Shown here piece after piece: positions 7,765 through 46,501 of a DNA stretch of 64,000 nucleotides. The notes beneath the pieces are model-generated. The model searched no databases. It had not been told where the DNA came from and worked only from the letters and a program-made list of their open reading frames with translations. How positions within the stretch are numbered: position 1 is the first letter of the stretch; every line of letters begins with the position of its first letter. The DNA is from an uncultured Actinomycetes bacterium (GTDB lineage: Bacteria > Actinomycetota > Aquicultoria > Subteraquimicrobiales > CAMTWV01). A program made the position numbers and the translations under genes. The stretch spans positions 94,199 to 158,198 of the forward strand of contig CAMTWV010000002.1 of NCBI GenBank assembly GCA_947085535.1. The letters are read 5' to 3'.

Positions 7765-8499
7765 CTATATGCCGAGGAGTTGCTCTAAACCATAGGTTAG
7801 TCCTGGTCTCTGTCCTACATTTTTGATTGCCATTATAACACCGGGCATAAAGGAAGTTCGATCGATTGAGTCGTGTCTGATGGTTAGGGTTTGCCCTGTT
7901 CCGCCAAAAATTACTTCTTGGTGGGCAACTAATCCAGGCAGTCTAACACTGTGAATCGGGATATTTGGGTTATTTGTGATTCTCGAGATGCCCTGCGCAG
8001 TTTTTAAAGCGGTTCCTGACGGGGCATCTACTTTTTGCTTATGATGAAGTTCGATTATTTCCACATCGGGCAAGAAACGAGCAGCTATTTCTGATAGTTT
8101 CATCATAAGTACAGCACCAACAGCAAAATTAGGAGCAATAAAAGCATTTACCCCTTTTTTTTCGCACAGAGATTTAACTTCGAATAAATTATCCTCTGTG
8201 ATGCCTGTGGTTCCAATGACTGTGTGTACCCTGGCATTTAATGTTTTTCTGATATTATTCATTACCGCTCCAGGATGAGTAAAATCGACCACAACATCAG
8301 GTTGAGAAGACTTAATGGTTTCCTCTAAGTTATTCTGGATTAAAACACCTATTTTCCCTAACCCGATAAGTTCACCTATGTCGGTGTTAACCATTGATAT
8401 ATCTACTGCTCCAACCAGCGAAAGTTCTTGGTCAACCAGAACAGCCCGACAGACTTCTCGTCCCATTTTCCCGGCAGCGCCTGAAACTAACACGCGCAT
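7765..8499 (-). CDS. dapB: 4-hydroxy-tetrahydrodipicolinate reductase
   Basis: MRVLVSGAAGKMG Rossmann start and DapB C-terminal domain. SD AAGGAGG upstream. Confidence 0.9.
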   Translation of the reverse strand: MRVLVSGAAGKMGREVCRAVLVDQELSLVGAVDISMVNTDIGELIGLGKIGVLIQNNLEETIKSSQPDVVVDFTHPGAVMNNIRKTLNARVHTVIGTTGITEDNLFEVKSLCEKKGVNAFIAPNFAVGAVLMMKLSEIAARFLPDVEIIELHHKQKVDAPSGTALKTAQGISRITNNPNIPIHSVRLPGLVAHQEVIFGGTGQTLTIRHDSIDRTSFMPGVIMAIKNVGQRPGLTYGLEQLLGI

Positions 8500-8534
8500 C
8501 GTTCTTCACCTCCTTAAAATTCAGACTATAGACA

Positions 8535-12229: not shown

Positions 12230-12499
12230 TTATCCGCGCAAACCTAATTTTTTAATTACATCATTGTATCTTTTAGGGTCGATTTTTTTGATGTAAGCCA
12301 AAAGACTTCTTCTCTGCCCCACCATTTTAAGTAATCCGTGTCTTGAGCTATTATCTTTTTTGTGGATTTTGAAGTGGCTGGCTAATTTGTCGATTTTTTT
12401 TGTGAGAATTGCAATTTGGACTTCTGGGGAACCAGTATCAGTTGTATGCAGCTTAAAATCGTTAATAATCTTTTCTTTTTCGTCCTTAGCTAAAGACAT
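12230..12499 (-). CDS. rpsO: 30S ribosomal protein S15
   Basis: 89 aa, [17 protein letters not shown]...HLKIHKKD..SRRGLL signature. Confidence 0.95.
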
Positions 12500-12614
12500 T
12501 TTTTCACCTCCCCTTTTTAATCCCGCTTACCAAGAATGCGTTGGTGATTCGCGATCCCAGTGAAACGGTGAAACAGCTTGTTGCCGCTCCATTGTAAAAA
12601 ATAATGATACCATA

Positions 12615-12640
12615 GGTTGAAATTGATGTAAAATTCAACC
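12615..12640. promoter_or_regulatory. Inverted-repeat operator GGTTGAA-N12-TTCAACC upstream of the XRE gene promoter
   Basis: ggttgaaattgatgtaaaattcaacc. 7-nt perfect inverted arms. Sits in the divergent rpsO / XRE promoter region. Confidence 0.5.
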
Positions 12641-12668
12641 AAAATAGACAAGAAAAAATAGACAAGAA
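12641..12668. promoter_or_regulatory. Exact tandem direct repeat 2 x AAAATAGACAAGAA immediately upstream of a TTTACA(-35)/TATATT(-10)-like promoter of the XRE gene
   Basis: aaaatagacaagaa aaaatagacaagaa read directly. Putative -35 TTTACA at 12683-12688. Confidence 0.5.
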
Positions 12669-12752
12669 ATTTTTGCTATCTTTATTTACAAAATTGAGTT
12701 TATAAAATATATTTAAAGTCAGTAACGAAATTAAATTAAAAGGAGGATTAAA

Positions 12753-13142
12753 ATGGCAAGTATTGACGAAAAGTTGAGATTTTTATTTACCACACATTTA
12801 AGCCCTGACGGAGATGAATACACCTACGAGGAAGTTGCTCAAGGAACCGGAGGTGTAATTTCACCAAGTTATGTCTGGAATCTCCGAAATGGGAAGAAGC
12901 TGAATCCAAGCCGGTCTAAGATGGAAATACTGGCAAAATTCTTCGATGTGTCACCTTCCTACTTCTTTGATGAGGAAGACGCTCTAAAGAAAAGCTTAAG
13001 CATTGATACAAGAATCGTGAGAGCAATTGAAGACCCAGTGGTAAGAGACATTGCTTTGCGGGCAATGGACTTAAGCGACAGAAACAAAGAGTTTATTTTA
13101 GCTATGGTTGATAAAGCGAAAGAGTTAGTTGAGGAAAAATAG
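12753..13142 (+). CDS. XRE-family helix-turn-helix transcriptional regulator (ImmR/CapH/DdrO-like repressor candidate)
   Basis: HTH_3-like core YTYEEVAQGTGGVISPSYVWNLRNGKKLNPSRSKMEILAKFFDVSPSYFF plus about 50-aa C-terminal extension. SD AAAGGAGG 7 nt before ATG. Stop TAG overlaps the GTG of the next gene. Confidence 0.8.
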   Translation: MASIDEKLRFLFTTHLSPDGDEYTYEEVAQGTGGVISPSYVWNLRNGKKLNPSRSKMEILAKFFDVSPSYFFDEEDALKKSLSIDTRIVRAIEDPVVRDIALRAMDLSDRNKEFILAMVDKAKELVEEK

Positions 13143-13660
13143 TGCTCAACCAGAGCAAGCTTAGAAAAAAGGTTAATAAATTGCTAAAAGAATTGAATTT
13201 TGAAGGAAGTTTTGATTCTTTTAGGTTTGTTGAGAAACTCGGGGAGCAATTAAACTTAAAGATAAAACTCCAATCTGTTCCCATGCCGCCCGGTTTTTTT
13301 GGCTTCTGGAGTTTAATCAATGACTGTCATGTCATTCTTTATCGGGCAAATACTTCTTGGTTTCATCAGCAACAAATTATCTTCCATGAATGCGGGCATA
13401 TTTGTTTAGGCCATCATTCAGGAAGCATTGAAAAGTTTTTAAAAAGAGAAATTCTCTACTCCGAGCCCGAGGAGCAAGAAGCAGAAACTTTTGCCACACT
13501 TCTTCTATGTAATGCTATAACTCAGGGATTGACTGAGCAAGGTATTTCTCTAAGCCAATATTATAACCAAAACAGTTCTTTTTACAACGAGTGTCCCCAG
13601 GATGTAATTTCAATGCAGGATTTTATGCTTCAATTAAAAGAAGTAATGGAAATGAGGTGA
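13142..13660 (+). CDS. ImmA/IrrE-family (COG2856) HEXXH zinc metallopeptidase-domain protein
   Basis: IFHECGHICLGHH HEXXH motif followed by EAETFATLLL, matching the ImmA/IrrE E-x3-A-N-x-FA region. GTG start overlapping the upstream stop (translational coupling). Confidence 0.75.
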   Translation: MLNQSKLRKKVNKLLKELNFEGSFDSFRFVEKLGEQLNLKIKLQSVPMPPGFFGFWSLINDCHVILYRANTSWFHQQQIIFHECGHICLGHHSGSIEKFLKREILYSEPEEQEAETFATLLLCNAITQGLTEQGISLSQYYNQNSSFYNECPQDVISMQDFMLQLKEVMEMR

Positions 13661-13670
13661 GGTAACTCCC

Positions 13671-14960
13671 TTGCTTTATTACTTAGATTACCTTTTTCTT
13701 ATGCTCTTTTGGACTTGTACTTTGTATGCGCTTAAAGCTTATTATGTAAATCCACGTGATTCGAAGAATAAGCATGTTTTTTTGGTTTTTTTATTTGCTT
13801 CTATTGCTTTTACCTTTGCCGCACCCATTATTGCTCAAAAATTCAATAAGTTTTTGGGAATTAGCAGCATCAGTCGACCAATCGAGAATATCTCGAGCCT
13901 TATAGCTCTTTACTTTGGCTACCTTTTTTTTACGGATTTTGCTCCTAAAAAAAAGAAAAGAATTCCATGGCTTACTTTCTATCTTTTTTTGGTTACTGTA
14001 GCTCTAATTTCAATTTTTTCCCTGTTTTTGTCCAAACCTCAGCTTGAACCAATTTTTTTGGGTGAGGACACAAGAAATTTATCTGTTTTCATTTACAGTT
14101 TAGTTCTTCAGTCCCTTTTTCTCCCCCTTTTTGCTATTTATGCTTTAAATTTTTATAGATATGCTCGCCTGGTCAAAGAGCAAGCAACAAGAGTCAGACT
14201 TTATTCTTTATCGATAGGTTGTTTAATGGGCGCTTCGGGTCGCATTCTTGAACTCGTTTACTGGTTTGATATGCGGTATTTTGCTTATCTAAAGTTTTTC
14301 GGATTCTCTGCGGTTATTAGAATAATCAATTTATTTATGGTTTTATTTCTTTACGCTGGTTTTATAATGCCTGCTTTTTTAAGGAAAATTGTAGAGTCGT
14401 TTGGCGAACTGTTAGGATTGCGTCGAACTCGATATAATTTGATTTCCTTGCTTGCTTTAATTAACGACGCCCGTTCTTTTCTTCATTCTGATAATGAAAT
14501 GATTAATTATGTGCGGCGACTGTGCGAAAAATTTTTCTTAAGCTTAGAGGAGACAGCGCAGGCGGTAGAAAGTGCTCGGATAATTTCTGCTCTGGCTGGA
14601 AAAACAGATCAAAATTCAACTATGGAGTCTGCTCAGGTTTTTCATAGCGCTGCCAAGTATGCAGCGGCTGCCTTTGCTGAAGAAATTAAGTTTTATGACC
14701 AGGTTTATAAGAATATTTTGTATGCCAAGGAAAGGTATGACGGAAAGGATGCTATTTCTGACTTAAGTGGGGATAAATTACCAATGGGCTCACGCATTAT
14801 AAAAGTGGTTGATTGCTATTTCAATTCAAATCTTTTTCCCTTCGAAGCAGTCAAAGTTTTAAAGAAAGGTGCGAATAAAGAATTTGATCCCGAAGTAATA
14901 AAAGCTTTTATTGAAATACTCGAGGAAGAAAAAAACCTCAATCTCTTAAGATCTTCTTAG
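13671..14960 (+). CDS. 7-TM membrane protein with C-terminal degenerate (catalytically inactive) HD-GYP-like domain
   Basis: Seven hydrophobic segments in residues 1-235. The C-terminal 190 aa align by eye to the HD-GYP fold (ERYDGKDAIS ~ HHERWDGSGYP; GDKLPMGSRIIKVVDCYFN ~ GEEIPLEARILAVADVFDA; KEFDPEVIKAF ~ GTQFDPEVVEAF), but HD, HHE and GYP are replaced by LA, AKE and GKD. TTG start with SD AGGTGAGG. 3' end overlaps ribF by 23 nt on the opposite strand. Confidence 0.7.
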   Translation: MLYYLDYLFLMLFWTCTLYALKAYYVNPRDSKNKHVFLVFLFASIAFTFAAPIIAQKFNKFLGISSISRPIENISSLIALYFGYLFFTDFAPKKKKRIPWLTFYLFLVTVALISIFSLFLSKPQLEPIFLGEDTRNLSVFIYSLVLQSLFLPLFAIYALNFYRYARLVKEQATRVRLYSLSIGCLMGASGRILELVYWFDMRYFAYLKFFGFSAVIRIINLFMVLFLYAGFIMPAFLRKIVESFGELLGLRRTRYNLISLLALINDARSFLHSDNEMINYVRRLCEKFFLSLEETAQAVESARIISALAGKTDQNSTMESAQVFHSAAKYAAAAFAEEIKFYDQVYKNILYAKERYDGKDAISDLSGDKLPMGSRIIKVVDCYFNSNLFPFEAVKVLKKGANKEFDPEVIKAFIEILEEEKNLNLLRSS

Positions 14961-15864
14961 CTTTTTTAATATCTTCATGTATCTCTTCTATTAGTTGTTT
15001 CTCATCTTCAAACATTTTAATATCTCGAACTCTTTCTCTTATTTCGAGTTCAACTGGCTTTCCATATAAATTCTGGTTAAATCTAAAAATATGAGCCTCA
15101 ATGTGTCTTTTTAAGATACCAAAAGTTGGACTCTCTCCTATGTGAATAACACACGGGTTTTTTTCAGCGTTATACCAAAAAAAGCCAGCATAGACTCCTT
15201 TTTTGGGAACAGAAGCTTTATCGGGTGTTTTTATGTTAGCGGTAGGAAGTCCTAATTTTGAGTGAGCAATTCCTGTTCCTTTGATAACTTTCCCCGTAAT
15301 TCTTGGCCAGTGCCCGAGCAAACTTTTTGCTTTCTTAATATCCCCTGCTCTAATATGGTGTCTTATATTGCTGCTGCTGACCAATTCTTCCTCCAGATAC
15401 AGGAATGGTACGATTTTAGTTCCAAAACCCGTCTTTTTTTCGTAACCAATTAAGAAATCATGATCTCCTTTTGCGCCTTTTCCAAAATGAAAGTCCTCGC
15501 CTACCACTAAACTTGAGGCTTTAAGTTTTTTAAGGACTATTTCGTTAAGGAATTTTTCAGGGCTTAAGTTAGCTAACCGTTTGTTAAATTTAAGGATGAG
15601 TAAATAATCGACACCTAATTCTTCTATTAACTCTGCTTTTAAATGGGTGGCTGTCAAAATGGGGGGATGACTGCCTGGTTTAAGAACTTCGAGCGGATGA
15701 GGCTCAAAAGTAATAACAATGCTTTTGGCTCCACTTATTTTTGCAGTTTCTACCGCGGTTTTAATGATTTTTTGGTGCCCTTTATGAACACCATCAAAAA
15801 CGCCGATGGTGACAACGCTTTTTTCTATGAATGGCATGTCTTTAAGTTCTCTTATAATTTCCAT
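14938..15864 (-). CDS. ribF: bifunctional riboflavin kinase / FMN adenylyltransferase
   Basis: GVFDGVHKGHQ nucleotidyltransferase motif and C-terminal riboflavin kinase domain. 308 aa. Confidence 0.9.
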   Translation of the reverse strand: MEIIRELKDMPFIEKSVVTIGVFDGVHKGHQKIIKTAVETAKISGAKSIVITFEPHPLEVLKPGSHPPILTATHLKAELIEELGVDYLLILKFNKRLANLSPEKFLNEIVLKKLKASSLVVGEDFHFGKGAKGDHDFLIGYEKKTGFGTKIVPFLYLEEELVSSSNIRHHIRAGDIKKAKSLLGHWPRITGKVIKGTGIAHSKLGLPTANIKTPDKASVPKKGVYAGFFWYNAEKNPCVIHIGESPTFGILKRHIEAHIFRFNQNLYGKPVELEIRERVRDIKMFEDEKQLIEEIHEDIKKAKKILRD

Positions 15865-16780: not shown

Positions 16781-17758
16781 TTACTCTGTTTGGGTAAGCT
16801 TTTTGGTCAAATCAATTAAAATCTCAATAGTCTTTTCTTCTTTGAAGGGCGAAGAGAATCCAGCGGCGTTAGGATGTCCCCCTCCACCAAATTTTTCAGC
16901 AATTTTAATTACGTTAAATGGACCATGCGACCTCAAGCTCACCTTTATAGTTTTGTCGGGTAGCTCTTTTAAAATAGCTGCCACTTTTGTACCATTAATA
17001 CCTCTAATAATGTCGATAAAGTTTTCTGTTTCTTCCATTTTTGCGCCTGTTTGCGCGAGGTCTTTTTGGGTGATAACTGAGTAAGCAAGTCCAATTTCAG
17101 GAAGAAAGTTTAGCTTTTGAAGAGTATGCATAAGCAACTTAACACTTTCATGGGAATAATTTTCATAGACATTTTGAAAAACAAAATTAGGGGAAACACC
17201 GTATCCTAAAAGCTCTTCTGCCATTTTAAGAGTCTTTTTTGAAGTGTTTGAATACTGGAATTTGCCTGTGTCAGTAACAAGTCCTGTATAAAGACAAAGA
17301 GCAATTGAGTGGTCAATTTCCTCATTTAAATATTTAATTAAATCAAATATCACTTCTGTTGTGGCGCTAGCTTTTCCGTCAACTATGTTTATGACGCCGA
17401 ACATTTCGTTGTCTGCGTGATGATCGATGTTGACCAAGGTAATTGCACTTTTTGCTTCTTCGATGAGATTACCCAGACGCTCAATGTTAGCACAGTCTAA
17501 AGCAATGAATACTTCAGGTTTTTTAGGGCATTCGAAGTGTGGTTTTATAAGGTTTGCTCCCGGAAGAAAGGTATATTGAGGTGGGATGCGTAAAATTGGT
17601 TCACCCCAGCTTAAACAAACTTCTTTGCCCAGATTGGAGAGAAAAAGCCCCAAACCCAACAGCGAACTGATGCCATCGCCATCAGGCTGAACATGGGTGG
17701 CAACAACAAAACTGTTTGTCTTTTGAATTAAATTTGCAAATGGTTGAAAATCATTCAT
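16781..17758 (-). CDS. nrnA: DHH/DHHA1 phosphoesterase, NrnA-like nanoRNase / pAp phosphatase
   Basis: DGDGISS and NIDHHADN DHH motifs, GGGH DHHA1 motif. Start probably at MNDFQPF (ORF track start 17827 overlaps rbfA by 77 nt). Confidence 0.8.
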   Translation of the reverse strand: MNDFQPFANLIQKTNSFVVATHVQPDGDGISSLLGLGLFLSNLGKEVCLSWGEPILRIPPQYTFLPGANLIKPHFECPKKPEVFIALDCANIERLGNLIEEAKSAITLVNIDHHADNEMFGVINIVDGKASATTEVIFDLIKYLNEEIDHSIALCLYTGLVTDTGKFQYSNTSKKTLKMAEELLGYGVSPNFVFQNVYENYSHESVKLLMHTLQKLNFLPEIGLAYSVITQKDLAQTGAKMEETENFIDIIRGINGTKVAAILKELPDKTIKVSLRSHGPFNVIKIAEKFGGGGHPNAAGFSSPFKEEKTIEILIDLTKKLTQTE

Positions 17759-42044: not shown

Positions 42045-42971
42045 TTACTCTGACAAGAGGGCTTCCGTGAATTCATCAGGATTAAATTCACGCAAATCTT
42101 CCAAGCCCTCACCTATGCCAATTAGTTTAATGGGTATTTTTAGTTCGTCCTGAATAGCTATAACTATGCCGCCTCTGGCTGTACCGTCAAGCTTAGTCAG
42201 AATTATTCCATCAATACCCAGAGTTTCTTGAAAAACTTTTGCCTGGGTAATTCCGTTGTGTCCTGTCGTAGCATCAACCACAAGAAGTGTTTTTAAGTTC
42301 GCCTTGGGTGCCTCGCATTCAATTATGCGTTTAACCTTTTTTAGTTCTTCCATTAAATTTAAATAAGTATGCAGTCTTCCGGCCGTATCGATTAATAAAA
42401 CATTTGCTTTTCGGGCAAGTGCAGCGTGTACAGCATCAAAAGCTACAGCCGAAGGATTAGCGCCGCGTTTATGGCAAACACACTCAATGTCTAATTTTTT
42501 TGCCCAGACTTGAAGCTGTTCAATAGCAGCAGCCCTAAAAGTATCCGATGCGCAAAGTATTGGTTTTAAGTTTTTTTGCTTCACCTGATGGGCCATTTTT
42601 GCAATGGTAGTGGTTTTACCTGTGCCATTAACTCCCACAATTAAGAAGACATTTAGCTGATTGTCCTTTAAAAGTACATCCTCTTCCTTTCTTAAAATGG
42701 TTATTAATTCCCCCTTTAGATACTCCAAAATTTCCGGAGGATTTTTTAATTCGCCTCTTTTAACTTTCTCTTTTAAGTTGGAGACAAGCTTTATAGTAGT
42801 AGTCACACCTACATCAGCCCCAAGGAGTATTTCTTCGACTTTTTCCCAAACATGTTCTTCGAAACGAGTAAGTCGAGGAAAAATAGAAGAAAGCTCATGC
42901 GTAAGATTCTCGCGACTTTTTCTCAATCTTCTCTTAAGTTTTTCAAACAATTTTTCATCGGTAATTTTCAT
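42045..42971 (-). CDS. ftsY: SRP receptor FtsY (short, NG domains only)
   Basis: GVNGTGKTTT, DTAGR, TKLDG motifs. 308 aa. Confidence 0.9.
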   Translation of the reverse strand: MKITDEKLFEKLKRRLRKSRENLTHELSSIFPRLTRFEEHVWEKVEEILLGADVGVTTTIKLVSNLKEKVKRGELKNPPEILEYLKGELITILRKEEDVLLKDNQLNVFLIVGVNGTGKTTTIAKMAHQVKQKNLKPILCASDTFRAAAIEQLQVWAKKLDIECVCHKRGANPSAVAFDAVHAALARKANVLLIDTAGRLHTYLNLMEELKKVKRIIECEAPKANLKTLLVVDATTGHNGITQAKVFQETLGIDGIILTKLDGTARGGIVIAIQDELKIPIKLIGIGEGLEDLREFNPDEFTEALLSE

Positions 42972-45900
42972 ACTGCTTCACGCTCAGCGTTAAGTTTTTG
43001 TGAAATCAGTTTGGAAACACCATCAGCCTGCATGGTTGTGCCATAAATTGTGTCAGCCATTTCCATGGTTCGTTGCTGATGGGTGATGATTAGAAACTGA
43101 GTTTTGTCCTTTAACCTTAATAAAAGATTAATGAAGCGCTGAAGATTAGCTTCATCCAGAGACGCTTCAACTTCATCAAGGATGTAAAATGGGCTAGGCC
43201 TTGTAAAGTATAGGGCAAACAAGAAAGCTAAAGCAGCGAGTGCGGTTTCGCCCCCTGACAAAAGAGAAAGTTTCTGAAGTTTTTTCCCTTGCGGCTGAAT
43301 CTGTATCTCAATTCCTGACTCAAGAAGATTATCTTCTTTTTCTAAAACAATCTCAGCTTTTCCACCGGGAAATAAATAAGAAAAAACGGATTGGAAATTC
43401 TTATTAACTTCAACAAGAGTTTGGGCAAATTTTTCTTTTATTTTTTCATCTATTGCTCTGGTGACTTTTTCTAAAGCTTTTTTGCTATGCGATAAGTCAT
43501 TTATTTGTTCGTTCAAGAATTCATAACGCTCATCAAGCTCTTTAAATTCCTCAAGCGCCATGGGATTAACAGGACCCAGACTGCTTATTTTGCGCTTAAT
43601 TTCGCCAATTTTAGTCTGGCACTCAGAGTAAGAAATTTTTAGAGGATAATTTTCAAGTGCTTTCTCGAGCGGCGTATCGTATTCATCGACAATTTTTTCA
43701 ACAGCTGAGGTGATTTGTCCTTCCAACTGCACCCGACTTAATTCTTTTAAGCGTAAATCTTCTTGAAGTGTCTCTTTTTTTGCCTCGCATCCCTCTTTTT
43801 CTTCTTTAAGTTTTTTGAAAGCCCGCCTGATTTCTTCAAAGAATGTTTCATCCCCTGAAGCAATATCAGTCAGTTTCGCCGCCCACCAGTTTCCTTTTTC
43901 GTATAGGGCGGTAAAGAGCTCATAAGTGGGTTGTATGCGACCGACTAAAACTTCAAGCGCTTGAGAAATTTTGTGTTCGGATTCAGTTAAACTTTCAATT
44001 TCTCTTAAATCCTGATTTAATTTTTCTTTTTGCTGGTTTAGATGATTTTTTTGATTGACCAGCGATTTTAAATTAACTTCATTTTCCATTATTTTATGGC
44101 TGAGAGTAAGTTCTTCTTTATGGTTTGCATTTAATTCAACTTTGAAAACCTGGAGAGCTTCCTTTGCTTCATCTATTTTTGCTACAATATTTTTACTTTC
44201 TTTTGAGAAATTTTCTTTTGTGGTTTTGTCAATCTTTATTTCTTCACCAAGTTTATTTGACTCATTTTCAGCTTTTACTAAGTTATCTTTAAGCTTAATT
44301 AAGTCAGCCTCAAAATTGTGTATAGTCACTTTAAGAATTTCAATTTGAGAAGACTCATTGTTTAGCTTTTGTTGATATGAAGCTAAATTTTCTTTTGTTT
44401 GAGCGAGCCTTTCTTTATCTTTTTTAATTTCTGCCTCTAAAGTTGAAATCCCATGAGTTAATTTATTTTTTTCATCTTCAAGTGCTGTAAGCTCTCTTTT
44501 TCTATTTAAGATTTCCGAGGAATTGTTGCCAGCGATATTCCCGTAGCTTATTTTAAATGGGCAAAACACTTTGCCATTAGTTGTAACAAAAGTTAAATCA
44601 GAGCTTGTTTTATCGCTTAAACAACTGTCTTCGTTGATCAAATAAATATCTCTGGTTAGATACTCAATCGCCGATTTAAATTTTTCGTTTATTTCAATAA
44701 CGTCGCTTAATTTTTGTCCATTTGATTTGTGAGTATCAGGCATAGGAAGATTATTTATTGGAAGAAAAGAGATACCGCCCTGAATCGAGTTTCTTCGAAT
44801 AAGCCCAAGAGCATTTAAAGCCGTTTCTTTTGTGTCGCAAAGCACTGTGAATAAGTCAGGACCTAAAGCTGCCTCCAAAGCTTGTTCAAATTTAGGGGAA
44901 ATTTTAATTAAATCAATAAGGCAACCTGCTATGCCTTGAGGTTTGTTTTCTTTTTTTAATAACCAAGCTACTGCCTCAGGATAACCGGTTAAGTTGTTGT
45001 TCATGCCTTGAAGAGCATTGCTTTTTGATTTGCATTCAGCTGATTTTATTTTTAAGTCAGATAACTTCACCAGATGATTGTCTAATTTAAGTTGAACCTT
45101 ATTTAGTTCCTCTTCTAATTGTTTTATTTCTTTCCGGGAGTTTTTAATGTTACCCTCAAACCCTTCTCTTTCTTTGCTTTTAGCTTCAATTAACTTATTT
45201 AGCTCACTTATTTTTGTGAGATTAGAATTTCTTTCCGAGTCGATGAGTTTTAATTTTTCTTCGTTAAGGGTAATTTTTCTGTCAATATCAGATAACTTGT
45301 GCTGAATTTCAGAAAGATAAGCAGTGTTTTTATTAAGCGTCTCTTCCAAATTTTCAATCGTTTCTTCCAGATTAGAGCTTTTCTTAGTTTGATTTTCTTG
45401 AGAATTTTTAAGTTCATTTAAAGTATTTTCAATATGGCTTATTTCTTCCTCTGTTTTTTTCTTTCTATCATTTGTTTCTGTTATCTCTTTGTTCTTTTGG
45501 GTCTTTTGTTTTTCAAGCCGGTAAATTTCCTGCCGAATCTCGCTCATTTTTTCAATTAAGTGTTTACCTTTTTCCTCTAAAAGCAACATACTGCTATGAA
45601 GTCTTTCCTGAATAGCAGCAAGATGTCTTCTTTGTTCACTTAAATTTCCGGTAAAAAGTCTTTTCTCCTCTAAAGAGATCTGAAACTCTTCAATTTGGGT
45701 TTCTTTTTGTTTAAATTCATTTTTAAAAGTTTCAAAGCTTTCTTTTAACTGCTTTTCCTCTAAATTAAGCTTTTCCCATCTCTTTTGCATCTCTTTTAAT
45801 TCGAAAATTGTCTGACTTAGCTCTAACGTTTTTAACTCGTCGGTCAGCTTCTGGTATTCTTGAGCTTTTTCCGCCTGAGATTTTATGGGTCTAAGTTGAC

Positions 45901-46501
45901 GATGTACTTCTTGAGAAATATCTCGAATTCTTGATAGAGTTTGCTCCATTGACTCCAATTTTTTAATTGCCTTTTCTTTCCTTTTCTTATACTTCAATAC
46001 ATGAGCAACTTCCTCAATTAGAAGCCTTTTTTCTTCTGGCTTACTGGTTAAAATTTCTTCTAATTTCCCCTGACTGATAACAGAGTGGCACTCCCTTCCC
46101 ATTGCGGAGTCAGATAATAATTCCTGGATATCAAACAGTCGGCAAGGGGAATTATTTATGAAGTACTCTGAATCACCTGAGCGAAACAGACGGCGGCTAA
46201 TTGTTACCTCAGAAAATTCCAGGGGTATACTTTTATCTGAATTATCCATACAAAGAGTAATCTCGGCTAAGCCTAATGCTGGACGAGCGCTACTACCAGC
46301 AAAAATTACATCTTCCATAGCAGTGCCTCTAAGCGAGCGTGGACTTTGCTCTCCCAGCACCCAGAGGACTGCATCAGAAATATTACTTTTGCCGCTGCCG
46401 TTTGGACCTGCAATTACAGTTATTCCTGGTTTAAACTTTAAAATTGTTTTATCAGCAAAGGATTTAAATCCTTTGAGCGTTAAAGATTTAAGATACATCA
46501 A
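42968..46501 (-). CDS. smc: chromosome segregation protein SMC
   Basis: Walker A GPNGSGKSN, long coiled coils, hinge, C-terminal LSGGE signature and Walker B. 1177 aa. Confidence 0.95.
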   Translation of the reverse strand: MMYLKSLTLKGFKSFADKTILKFKPGITVIAGPNGSGKSNISDAVLWVLGEQSPRSLRGTAMEDVIFAGSSARPALGLAEITLCMDNSDKSIPLEFSEVTISRRLFRSGDSEYFINNSPCRLFDIQELLSDSAMGRECHSVISQGKLEEILTSKPEEKRLLIEEVAHVLKYKKRKEKAIKKLESMEQTLSRIRDISQEVHRQLRPIKSQAEKAQEYQKLTDELKTLELSQTIFELKEMQKRWEKLNLEEKQLKESFETFKNEFKQKETQIEEFQISLEEKRLFTGNLSEQRRHLAAIQERLHSSMLLLEEKGKHLIEKMSEIRQEIYRLEKQKTQKNKEITETNDRKKKTEEEISHIENTLNELKNSQENQTKKSSNLEETIENLEETLNKNTAYLSEIQHKLSDIDRKITLNEEKLKLIDSERNSNLTKISELNKLIEAKSKEREGFEGNIKNSRKEIKQLEEELNKVQLKLDNHLVKLSDLKIKSAECKSKSNALQGMNNNLTGYPEAVAWLLKKENKPQGIAGCLIDLIKISPKFEQALEAALGPDLFTVLCDTKETALNALGLIRRNSIQGGISFLPINNLPMPDTHKSNGQKLSDVIEINEKFKSAIEYLTRDIYLINEDSCLSDKTSSDLTFVTTNGKVFCPFKISYGNIAGNNSSEILNRKRELTALEDEKNKLTHGISTLEAEIKKDKERLAQTKENLASYQQKLNNESSQIEILKVTIHNFEADLIKLKDNLVKAENESNKLGEEIKIDKTTKENFSKESKNIVAKIDEAKEALQVFKVELNANHKEELTLSHKIMENEVNLKSLVNQKNHLNQQKEKLNQDLREIESLTESEHKISQALEVLVGRIQPTYELFTALYEKGNWWAAKLTDIASGDETFFEEIRRAFKKLKEEKEGCEAKKETLQEDLRLKELSRVQLEGQITSAVEKIVDEYDTPLEKALENYPLKISYSECQTKIGEIKRKISSLGPVNPMALEEFKELDERYEFLNEQINDLSHSKKALEKVTRAIDEKIKEKFAQTLVEVNKNFQSVFSYLFPGGKAEIVLEKEDNLLESGIEIQIQPQGKKLQKLSLLSGGETALAALAFLFALYFTRPSPFYILDEVEASLDEANLQRFINLLLRLKDKTQFLIITHQQRTMEMADTIYGTTMQADGVSKLISQKLNAEREAV

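Follow-up and report, generated by a model that had tools for sequence, protein, structure and literature searches.

A membrane protein with a catalytically dead HD-GYP domain, encoded together with an XRE-type protein and an M78-like peptidase in Actinomycetota

Catalytically dead signalling domains are common, and degenerate HD-GYP domains as such are already known; few of the latter have an assigned role. One example is the membrane receptor DvhD (DVU1020) from Desulfovibrio vulgaris: its degenerate HD-GYP domain (SQ in place of HD, MN in place of HH) binds cyclic diguanosine monophosphate (c-di-GMP) without metal, and the receptor controls a protease by means of an inside-out membrane switch (PMC13090378). 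The inactive HD-GYP proteins HnoD (SO_2541), ECA3548 and RpfG act via protein-protein contacts (10.1101/2021.11.05.467447). Here we describe a further case, gene 3, which is the last of three tightly packed genes (genes 1 to 3) in a 64-kb stretch of DNA from an uncultured Actinomycetes bacterium (contig CAMTWV010000002.1; the whole stretch is called the window in this work). Gene 3 codes for a membrane protein of 429 amino acids (aa) whose C-terminal HD-GYP domain has lost its catalytic motifs. Gene 1 codes for a helix-turn-helix (HTH) protein of the XRE type, the presumed repressor and peptidase substrate, and gene 2 for a minimal zinc peptidase resembling the M78 (ImmA/IrrE) family.

Described systems in which a sensor and a peptidase act on a repressor form the second background to this locus. 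BlaR1/BlaI and MecR1/MecI link a membrane sensor to the activity of a cytoplasmic zinc peptidase; as a result, the repressor is inactivated and an enzyme that modifies a small molecule is induced. In BlaR1, sensor and M56 peptidase reside in one chain, and the penicillin-binding domain is extracellular. CapH/CapP, a pair consisting of an XRE-type protein and an M78-type peptidase, is located upstream of, and divergent from, the operon which it regulates (10.1101/2022.04.27.489752). The second domain of CapP is GAF-like, binds single-stranded DNA and contains a cysteine switch (10.64898/2026.05.16.725639).

HD-GYP domain: fold and decay

The C-terminal region of gene 3 is a true HD-GYP homologue. 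The Pfam model HD_5 matched residues 311-409 with 31.1 bits (gathering cut-off 27.2), and phmmer aligned gene 3 with PA4781 (4r8z; E 1.2e-5) in three blocks: (i) AKERYDGKDAI with HHERWDGRGFP; (ii) GDKLPMGSRIIKVVD with GERIPLAARIVALAD; (iii) KEFDPEVIKAF with SEFDPRLVEAF. The same three blocks had been aligned by eye in an earlier note on this DNA, which dealt with positions 14440-14960 (gene 3 residues 257-429) and proposed an HD-GYP fold for them. When compared with PDB sequences, the family profile matched V-cGAP3 (5z7c; E 2.6e-16), PA4781 (4r8z; E 1.8e-13, over the whole domain with profile positions 249-420 aligned to chain positions 5-203) and DvhD (E 2.8e-8). The hhalign comparison with 13 canonical membrane-anchored HD-GYP proteins yielded 99.9% (E 1.6e-33, query 229-429), and 99.95% (E 5.7e-38) was reached with the C-terminal domain alone. 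In these alignments the stalk of gene 3 coincided with the stalk helix found in front of canonical HD-GYP domains.

Residues 235-429 were modelled by AlphaFold with a predicted local distance difference test score (pLDDT) of 89.5 and a predicted template modelling score of 0.82. The model contained the helical HD core plus the two extra C-terminal helices of the HD-GYP fold and was superposable on solved structures. In a Foldseek search of the PDB, the best 13 matches were all HD-GYP domains (PA4781, DvhD, PmGH, V-cGAP3, Bd1817), and the E-value jumped from 0.1 to approximately 2 after the thirteenth. Structure prediction and superposition on PmGH or Bd1817, which the earlier note had suggested as a check, agreed with the HD_5 score and the hhalign result in bearing out the proposed fold.

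Motif registers were derived from mafft and hhalign, which were concordant, and PmGH numbering and residue roles were taken from PMC4159591. Gene 3 has other residues in place of seven of the eight metal ligands of PmGH, of both catalytic residues and of the GYP motif (Table 1); the surviving motif residues are E354, D357 and D381 only. In PmGH, single alanine substitutions at the His ligands, the HD Asp, D183 or K225 abolish activity while the E185A and D305A mutants retain some (PMC4159591). Having lost its metal centre, catalytic pair and GYP loop, the domain is a pseudo-enzyme, and the conclusion that it is unable to act as a metal-dependent phosphodiesterase is well supported. The earlier note had likewise recognized the loss of the phosphodiesterase motifs and had read HHE correctly as AKE. 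Its replacements for HD ('LA') and GYP ('GKD') were three and two residues out of register, respectively (for the correct residues, see Table 1), which does not affect the conclusion: alignment with real HD-GYP sequences by mafft and hhalign placed no intact HD, HH or GYP in gene 3.

Relatives P0001-P0011, P0018 and P0049 are degenerate in the same way (13/13), with GYP kept in P0008 alone. The decay is therefore old and family-wide rather than a sequencing artefact. ERYDG, PxGxRIIxVV and FDPxVV, by contrast with the motifs that decayed, are conserved across the family. Relative to a 96%-identical copy (locus L003), the ratio of non-synonymous to synonymous substitution rates (dN/dS) of the C-terminal domain was 0.29 (19 substitutions). 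This value and the conserved motifs indicate that the dead domain is maintained.

The N-terminal part of gene 3 was predicted to be membrane-embedded. The AlphaFold model of the full-length protein (mean pLDDT 80.7) showed seven transmembrane (TM) helices and, behind them, a long stalk helix. Predicted outer loops were at most 17 aa long, and Lys plus Arg residues numbered 18 in the predicted inner loops versus 6 in the outer ones, consistent with an N-out/C-in orientation. Helices, loop lengths and charge distribution thus support the earlier description of a 7TM module lacking any large extracytoplasmic domain. The predicted 7TM bundle superposes on receptors of the G protein-coupled receptor (GPCR) type at 6-13% identity, which is a resemblance of fold only.

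The three-gene cassette and its relatives

Genes 1 to 3 form one co-directional, translationally coupled operon. The TAG stop codon of gene 1 and the GTG start codon of gene 2 have one base in common. Genes 2 and 3 are separated by 10 nucleotides (nt), with a Shine-Dalgarno-like site ahead of gene 3, and the TTG start codon of gene 3 lies 8-9 nt past this sequence (GGTGAGG).

Gene 1 matched the Pfam model HTH_3 with 26.7 bits (cut-off 23). Its HTH is located at residues 23-71 and is followed by a C-terminal extension of about 55 aa. Compared with L003, dN/dS of gene 1 was 0.05. Orthologues were found upstream of the peptidase gene in L001, L003, L015 and in Streptomyces and Mycobacterium loci (tblastn E 1e-8 to 1e-54).

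In gene 2, the residues H82, E83, H86, E111, A114 and E115 are invariant in 15/15 homologues; the first three belong to the HExxH motif, and E111 or E115 may serve as third zinc ligand by analogy to IrrE. Six of the 15 homologues matched PF06114 at E <=0.01 (best 1.2e-4). The best PADLOC matches were capH for gene 1 (E 3.8e-8, residues 12-124) and capP for gene 2 (E 2.1e-6, profile positions 3-112 of 242 only), two models which belong to the broad XRE and M78 superfamilies, respectively. As gene 2 codes for no more than 172 aa and its match to CapP is restricted to the catalytic half, a regulatory domain is missing. The sequence thus describes a minimal zinc peptidase which has no sensor domain of its own and is apparently active. 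Between HExxH and E..AE (corresponding to window positions 13400-13470), the deep-branching peptidases of the window, L001 and L015 lack about 24 residues that are present in all homologues of Streptomyces, Mycobacterium and Nocardia.

An exhaustive profile search was needed to find the roughly 12 family members of gene 3, since word-indexed searches with the protein and with family alignments returned 4 and 11 matches, respectively, that were mostly canonical HD-GYP proteins. Assemblies in which the family occurs include GCA_030019215.1 and GCA_030692835.1. Genome and metagenome scans with the family alignment detected one true relative (on the L001 contig), and the remaining matches, all canonical HD-GYP proteins, served as negative controls. 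P0002 and P0003 (loci L001 and L002; about 50% identity) belong to cassettes whose three genes match those of the window in order and spacing and lie in a different neighbourhood. The same order and spacing were found for P0018 (L015; 20-24% identity). The gene for P0004 (L004; 53% identity), from Candidatus Subteraquimicrobiales (Actinomycetota), occupies the ribF junction just as gene 3 does in the window; the contig ends inside this gene, so that genes 1 and 2 are outside the visible part. None of the canonical HD-GYP loci L006-L014 and L029-L047 had homologues of gene 1 or gene 2 in tblastn searches. No relative of gene 3 was encoded in phage records or viral contigs, and a phage origin was rejected on these grounds.

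The surroundings of the L001 cassette (Actinomycetota metagenome-assembled genome GCA_030019215.1) are those of an accessory region, as opposed to the housekeeping setting in the window. On either side of the cassette lies a toxin-antitoxin pair with a PIN domain (7804-8515 and 12487-13136), one of the PIN/MazE type and one of the PIN/ribbon-helix-helix type. A convergent gene for an Rce1-like (CPBP) protein is also present, and a tyrosine integrase gene is located 5 kb downstream of the cassette (16813-17742).

A large family is connected with gene 3 through its membrane domain. The NCBIfam model NF042915 ('MAB_1171c family putative transporter') matched residues 8-245 with 63.3 bits (cut-off 100), covering profile positions 2-239 of 362, and Pfam PF20182 (DUF6545) gave no match to gene 3 at E <=10. 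When the window family was compared with eight MAB_1171c/DUF6545 proteins by hhalign, the two aligned with 99.7% (E 2.9e-25) over 341 columns; the aligned part (query 4-352) extends from the 7TM domain across the stalk into the dead HD-GYP domain, of which it takes in the first half. The C-terminal regions alone gave 89.6% (E 1.9e-6). Direct hhalign comparisons of DUF6545 with canonical HD-GYP proteins were not significant (35% and 13.6%), with a correct register; hence the link between DUF6545 and HD-GYP rests on the window family as a bridge. From these alignments, DUF6545 appears to be a truncated and further decayed remnant of a dead HD-GYP domain.

Twelve loci from Streptomyces, Mycobacterium avium, Nocardia and others were inspected, some of them found through the membrane protein and some through the peptidase. 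In 12/12, the gene directly upstream of MAB_1171c/DUF6545 codes for the peptidase, and the two often overlap; in 11/12, the peptidase gene in turn has upstream of it a gene annotated as HTH or matched by gene 1 in tblastn. In the remaining locus (L024), the gene at this position is annotated as 'hypothetical' and had no tblastn match to gene 1. Window genes 1 and 2 also matched the actinomycete loci directly (tblastn). The window triad is, as judged from sequence comparison, orthologous to the triad of XRE protein, 'toxin' or 'ParH-like' peptidase and MAB_1171c (DUF6545) protein of Streptomyces, Mycobacterium and Nocardia. Annotation of the peptidase by PGAP is inconsistent, its homologues being called 'toxin', 'regulator component', 'ParH-like protein', 'ImmA/IrrE family metallo-endopeptidase' and 'hypothetical protein', and such homologues are found on at least 158 actinobacterial plasmids (158 records). 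On plasmid pFRL6 of Streptomyces sp. F12 (L019, 1-4167), two pairs of peptidase and DUF6545/MAB_1171c genes are arranged on opposite strands and diverge from a common intergenic region; paralogous modules therefore coexist.

In the actinomycete loci a fourth gene on the same strand usually follows the triad, with overlapping start and stop codons in several cases. It codes for a cytochrome P450 (P450) in L017, L018, L020, L021, L023 and L025, an amidase in L019 and L026, a polysaccharide deacetylase in L016, and a terpene synthase plus a P450 in L028. A Streptomyces triad with a P450 gene is located, for instance, at 82237-85710 of NZ_CP108441.1. The fourth gene is absent from the window cassette and its closest relatives. 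The triad is thus the constant unit, and the coupled fourth gene varies or is missing.

Our literature survey retrieved nothing on DUF6545, nothing on the triad and one paper on MAB_1171c. A transposon mutant of Mycobacterium abscessus in MAB_1171c had lower minimal inhibitory concentrations (MICs) of cefoxitin and clarithromycin and formed about 50% less biofilm, which its authors interpreted as a transport defect (PMC8707978). These phenotypes are compatible with a regulatory as well as with a transport role. As a mere lead, the triad might correspond to NeoI/NeoH/NeoG (ParI/H/G) of aminoglycoside clusters, as hinted at by the PGAP names 'ParH-like protein' and 'regulator component' of gene 2 homologues; further searches yielded nothing on this point. 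The genes neoGH-aphA have been described as an operon of regulatory genes (PMC10991966).

Within the window, the cassette (12753-14960) is the sole coding block on the plus strand, and the approximately 55 housekeeping genes around it are all on the minus strand. The order of this array is dapB, pnp, rpsO, then the cassette, followed by ribF, truB, an nrnA-like gene, rbfA, infB, nusA, proS, ispG and others. The convergent junction of gene 3 with ribF is also found in L003 (12 nt overlap) and L004 (4 nt; 53% identity). Upstream of gene 1, two direct (tandem) copies of ATAGACAAGAAA (12645-12670) and one inverted copy (12671-12684) are directly followed by a promoter-like sequence (12685-12713). 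The ATAGACAAGAAA repeats are suggested as a candidate operator, and no more than that, given that the count of promoter-like sites does not exceed the shuffled expectation. A search for inverted repeats upstream of the cassettes of the window, L001 and L015 found different repeats in each, ATAGACAAGAAA itself not having been searched for in L001 and L015. Elsewhere in the window, positions 44001-46000, inside an open reading frame (ORF) of 1177 aa on the minus strand (42968..46501), differ in composition (GC content 0.319 versus about 0.38 elsewhere; AT skew -0.285).

Table 1. Features of the cassette and correspondence of HD-GYP key residues between PmGH and gene 3
Feature	Position in window	Strand	Gene 3 residues	Remarks
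Putative promoter/operator of the cassette	12640..12715	+		ATAGACAAGAAA repeats adjoining promoter-like TTTACA-17-TATATT
Gene 1	12753..13142	+		XRE-type HTH protein, 129 aa; presumed repressor and peptidase substrate
Gene 2	13142..13660	+		Minimal M78 (ImmA/IrrE)-like zinc peptidase, 172 aa
HECGH	13385..13399	+		HExxH zinc-binding/catalytic motif of gene 2
EQEAETFA	13472-13495	+		Motif of gene 2 downstream of HECGH
Gene 3	13671..14960	+	1-429	429 aa, TTG start, last of three tightly packed genes
7TM domain	13671..14363	+	1-231	Predicted N-out/C-in; homologous to membrane domain of MAB_1171c family
Juxtamembrane stalk helix	14364..14480	+	232-270	Cytoplasmic; near-invariant P234 and D266
Dead HD-GYP (pseudo-enzyme) domain	14418..14957	+	~250-429	
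PmGH E185 (metal ligand)			L271	
PmGH H189 (metal ligand)			S273	Adjacent H272 not conserved in family
PmGH H221-D222 (HD metal ligands)	14583..14588	+	I305-S306	Register from mafft and hhalign
PmGH H250 (metal ligand)			A328	
PmGH H276-H277-E (HH, metal ligands)			A352-K353-E354	
PmGH D305 (last metal ligand)			D381	Kept; D/G/N/S/R in family
PmGH D183/K225 (catalytic pair)			S269/A309	
PmGH D308 (structural)			F384	
G-Y-P motif			D360-A361-I362	
Lid segment	14604..14660	+	312-330	Replaces the GKIGIxxxILxKPGxLTxEE lid, which contributes c-di-GMP contacts
AKERYDGKDAI	14724..14756	+	352-362	Remnant of HHExxDGxGYP; E354 and D357 kept
PMGSRIIKVVD	14781..14813	+	371-381	Conserved core motif of helix alpha10
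EFDPEV	14880..14897	+	404-409	C-terminal FDP motif; D406 and P407 invariant in family
3' end of gene 3 and 3' end of ribF	14938..14960	convergent		23-nt overlap; ribF at 14938..15864, minus strand

Proposed mode of action and alternatives

A constrained dead domain, a predicted 7TM domain, a peptidase without sensor, an XRE protein and the obligate, coupled co-occurrence of their genes over deep divergence led us to infer one regulatory device. The best explanation, to which we assign a probability of roughly 0.4, is a membrane sensor that controls cleavage of a repressor by the peptidase. In such a device, a cue that is lipophilic or associated with the membrane would be sensed by the 7TM domain. 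Stalk helix and dead HD-GYP domain, acting as transducer or docking surface, would relay the signal by docking or releasing the peptidase, and the activated gene 2 peptidase would then cleave the gene 1 repressor. The operon would thereby be de-repressed, together with the coupled P450, amidase or terpene synthase genes in Streptomyces, Mycobacterium and Nocardia. The membrane protein might thus supply in trans the sensing function which IrrE, CapP and ImmA have in extra domains or obtain from partners. Apart from its membrane input, the scheme would follow the logic of ImmR/ImmA, DdrO/IrrE and CapH/CapP (10.1101/2022.04.27.489752; 10.64898/2026.05.16.725639), and precedents for the part played by the dead domain are HnoD, RpfG and ECA3548 with their protein-protein contacts (10.1101/2021.11.05.467447) and DvhD with its protease (PMC13090378). 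Repressor cleavage by the peptidase, its control by the membrane protein and the nature of the signal are those elements of the scheme which we infer.

Several observations weigh against the sensor. (i) The gene order fits equally well with a membrane protein that is the regulated effector. (ii) Gene 2 reached 19.2 bits with Pfam Peptidase_M78 (PF06114), which is below the cut-off of 22, and its profile found no relative among PDB sequences. (iii) The 7TM fold is an AlphaFold model built from an alignment of 14 sequences. (iv) For gene 3 as a whole, dN/dS was 0.40, and 0.56 for the TM part (37 substitutions), values that indicate moderate constraint only. (v) Downstream of the window cassette there is no obvious cargo gene, ribF being convergent.

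A broader formulation of the sensor model would see in the triad an undescribed three-component transmembrane signalling system, widespread in Actinomycetota, in which a GPCR-like 7TM sensor, a fossil HD-GYP transducer and proteolysis of a repressor induce P450s or amidases in Streptomyces and Mycobacterium, and possibly the neoI-neoH-neoG-aphA unit of aminoglycoside clusters. The window family would then be the intermediate showing that DUF6545/MAB_1171c descends from a membrane HD-GYP phosphodiesterase. Taken as a whole, this formulation is tentative and open to considerable doubt.

Alternatively, the membrane protein might be cargo, i.e. a membrane-damaging effector of a defence, abortive-infection or toxin-antitoxin-like module, which the XRE protein would hold in check until activation of the peptidase, e.g. 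by DNA damage as in the case of CapH/CapP. The PADLOC matches of genes 1 and 2 to capH (3.8e-8) and capP (2.1e-6) fit with such a module, as do the label 'toxin' given by PGAP to many gene 2 homologues, the position of the L001 cassette between two toxin-antitoxin pairs with an integrase gene 5 kb away, and the frequent occurrence of homologues on actinobacterial plasmids. Gene 3, however, had no PADLOC match, and the phage records and viral contigs were devoid of relatives. In the lineage of the window, the cassette occupies a fixed site in a core housekeeping array, which is the same in the relative with 53% identity. CapH/CapP is divergent from its cargo and CapP has a DNA-sensing second domain (10.1101/2022.04.27.489752; 10.64898/2026.05.16.725639), neither of which applies to genes 1 to 3. 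Moreover, a cytoplasmic domain of the signalling type joined to a GPCR-like bundle would be unusual for a pore-forming effector, and it is the triad that is constant while the downstream enzymes vary. We therefore consider it unlikely that the membrane protein is cargo.

The earlier note had interpreted the degenerate domain as a probable receptor for a cyclic dinucleotide and the whole protein as a sensor or effector for second messengers that is embedded in the membrane. Such a receptor, whether for c-di-GMP or a different cyclic (di)nucleotide, might at the same time control the peptidase, and there is a precedent in DvhD, which still binds c-di-GMP in a metal-free manner though devoid of HD and HH ligands (PMC13090378). 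Some of the pocket-lining residues, namely D266, E354, D357 and R375, are still conserved. The residues of DvhD that contact c-di-GMP, namely Y523, L577, K582, Y621 (the GYP Tyr), M646, R650, Y652 and E668 (PMC13090378), correspond in gene 3 to L271, T317, Q322, A361, S386, two gaps and A401, so that 0/8 contacts of the canonical site are kept. The respective columns are not conserved in the family, the position of L577 being Leu in about half of the members, and none of the three bridging-site residues of DvhD is conserved as such family-wide, apart from K520, which corresponds to R268. Among the substrate contacts of PmGH (Y285, R314 and K317; PMC4159591), Y285 is replaced in gene 3, and the loop with R314 and K317 (R650 and Y652 of DvhD) is deleted in every family member. 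The lid segment varies in length and sequence across the family and is predicted to be disordered (pLDDT 34 when modelled within the full-length protein and 52-64 when only the domain was modelled). Furthermore, the DUF6545 relatives keep the triad without the C-terminal half of the domain. A motif scan for GGDEF and HDxGK (intact HD-GYP) detected none in the 64-kb window, a weak point as it covers the window only.

Loss of catalytic motifs is by itself no proof of a nucleotide receptor, and in gene 3 the contact residues are gone as well. The receptor claim of the earlier note finds no positive support. There is little sign in the sequence of the known HD-GYP mode of nucleotide binding, although a new mode is conceivable, and we judge a nucleotide receptor to be quite unlikely.

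That gene 3 is a transporter with the C-terminal domain as a regulatory appendage is very unlikely. The NF042915 match over residues 8-245, the altered MICs and biofilm formation of the MAB_1171c mutant (PMC8707978) and a weak profile match to POT peptide transporters (E 0.008) could be quoted in favour. However, the label 'transporter' is based on membrane topology alone, the POT match has a high compositional bias (10.4 versus a score of 17.4), and obligate coupling to a repressor-peptidase pair is characteristic of signalling proteins rather than of transporters.

A different, metal-poor or single-metal catalysis by the four acidic residues D266, E354, D357 and D381, the first three of which occur in most of the family, is extremely improbable despite the partial activity of PmGH E185A and D305A, as all five His ligands, the HD Asp and D183/K225 are replaced, the corresponding alanine mutants of PmGH are inactive (PMC4159591), and D381 is variable.

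The implications of the locus extend beyond the window. The family DUF6545/MAB_1171c, hitherto a 'putative transporter', receives a domain assignment, apparently 7TM plus decayed HD-GYP. A strictly conserved operon of repressor, peptidase and 7TM protein is brought to light which occurs in many chromosomes as well as on plasmids, is often coupled to P450, amidase or terpene genes and for which the literature seemingly contains no mechanistic description. If the sensor model is true, the triad could be a handle to switch on silent tailoring or resistance genes in Streptomyces.

Comparison with known systems

Among the described HD-GYP proteins, DvhD (PDB 9RBZ, 9RC0) belongs to the best matches of gene 3 in both sequence and structure. 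Both are membrane proteins with a stalk helix, a cytoplasmic, non-catalytic HD-GYP domain and a tie to a protease. The motif replacements differ (SQ and MN in DvhD, IS and AK in gene 3), and for binding of c-di-GMP DvhD keeps GYP, two of the His residues (the first and the third) and the loop AMxxxRxYR, all of which are lost or deleted in gene 3. Whereas DvhD has a PAS domain and a periplasmic dCache domain and acts on a periplasmic protease, gene 3 consists of a bare 7TM domain in front of the HD-GYP domain and is paired with a cytoplasmic M78-like peptidase.

The active enzymes PmGH (4MCW), PA4781 (4R8Z) and V-cGAP3 (5Z7C) have the fold in common with gene 3 and, along some 180 residues, a colinear sequence to which the stalk helix, ERxDG, IPxGxRIIxVxD and FDPxVVxAF belong. 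In contrast to these, gene 3 is devoid of seven of the eight metal ligands, D183/K225, GYP and the substrate-binding L10/11 loop (PMC4159591). The inactive proteins HnoD, ECA3548 and RpfG resemble gene 3 in their degenerate HD and HHE motifs (SE/QLE, HT/ANE) and in exerting regulation without hydrolysis. Unlike gene 3, they are soluble, linked to REC or PilZ domains, keep more of the motifs and have neither a 7TM domain nor an operon with repressor and peptidase.

MAB_1171c/DUF6545 proteins have a 7TM domain and a first half of the cytoplasmic domain that are homologous to those of gene 3, and the same operon partners. They differ by the absence of the half with ERYDG...FDP, by roughly 35 additional aa inserted behind the stalk helix and by the usual presence of a fourth gene.

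With respect to genes 1 and 2, an apparently similar combination, of an extended XRE-type HTH protein and an M78-type HExxH peptidase, is known from CapH/CapP of cyclic oligonucleotide-based anti-phage signalling systems (CBASS) and other defence operons, from ImmR/ImmA of ICEBs1 and from DdrO/IrrE of Deinococcus. Gene 2, with its 172 aa, lacks the GAF-like, DNA-sensing domain of CapP. Unlike CapH/CapP, genes 1 and 2 are co-directional and coupled with a third gene, and a dedicated 7TM partner is always present. The triad may be compared to a split version of BlaR1/BlaI with sensor and peptidase on separate chains; this is a functional analogy without any sequence relationship.

Set against these systems, four aspects of the locus are new. 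The architecture of a bare GPCR-like 7TM bundle with a fully stripped HD-GYP domain is, as far as the models go, one of them. A second, as read from the alignments, is the loss of nucleotide contacts alongside that of the metal ligands. The third is the strict partnership with a repressor and a peptidase, and the fourth is the bridge that the window family forms between HD-GYP proteins and the large DUF6545/MAB_1171c family.

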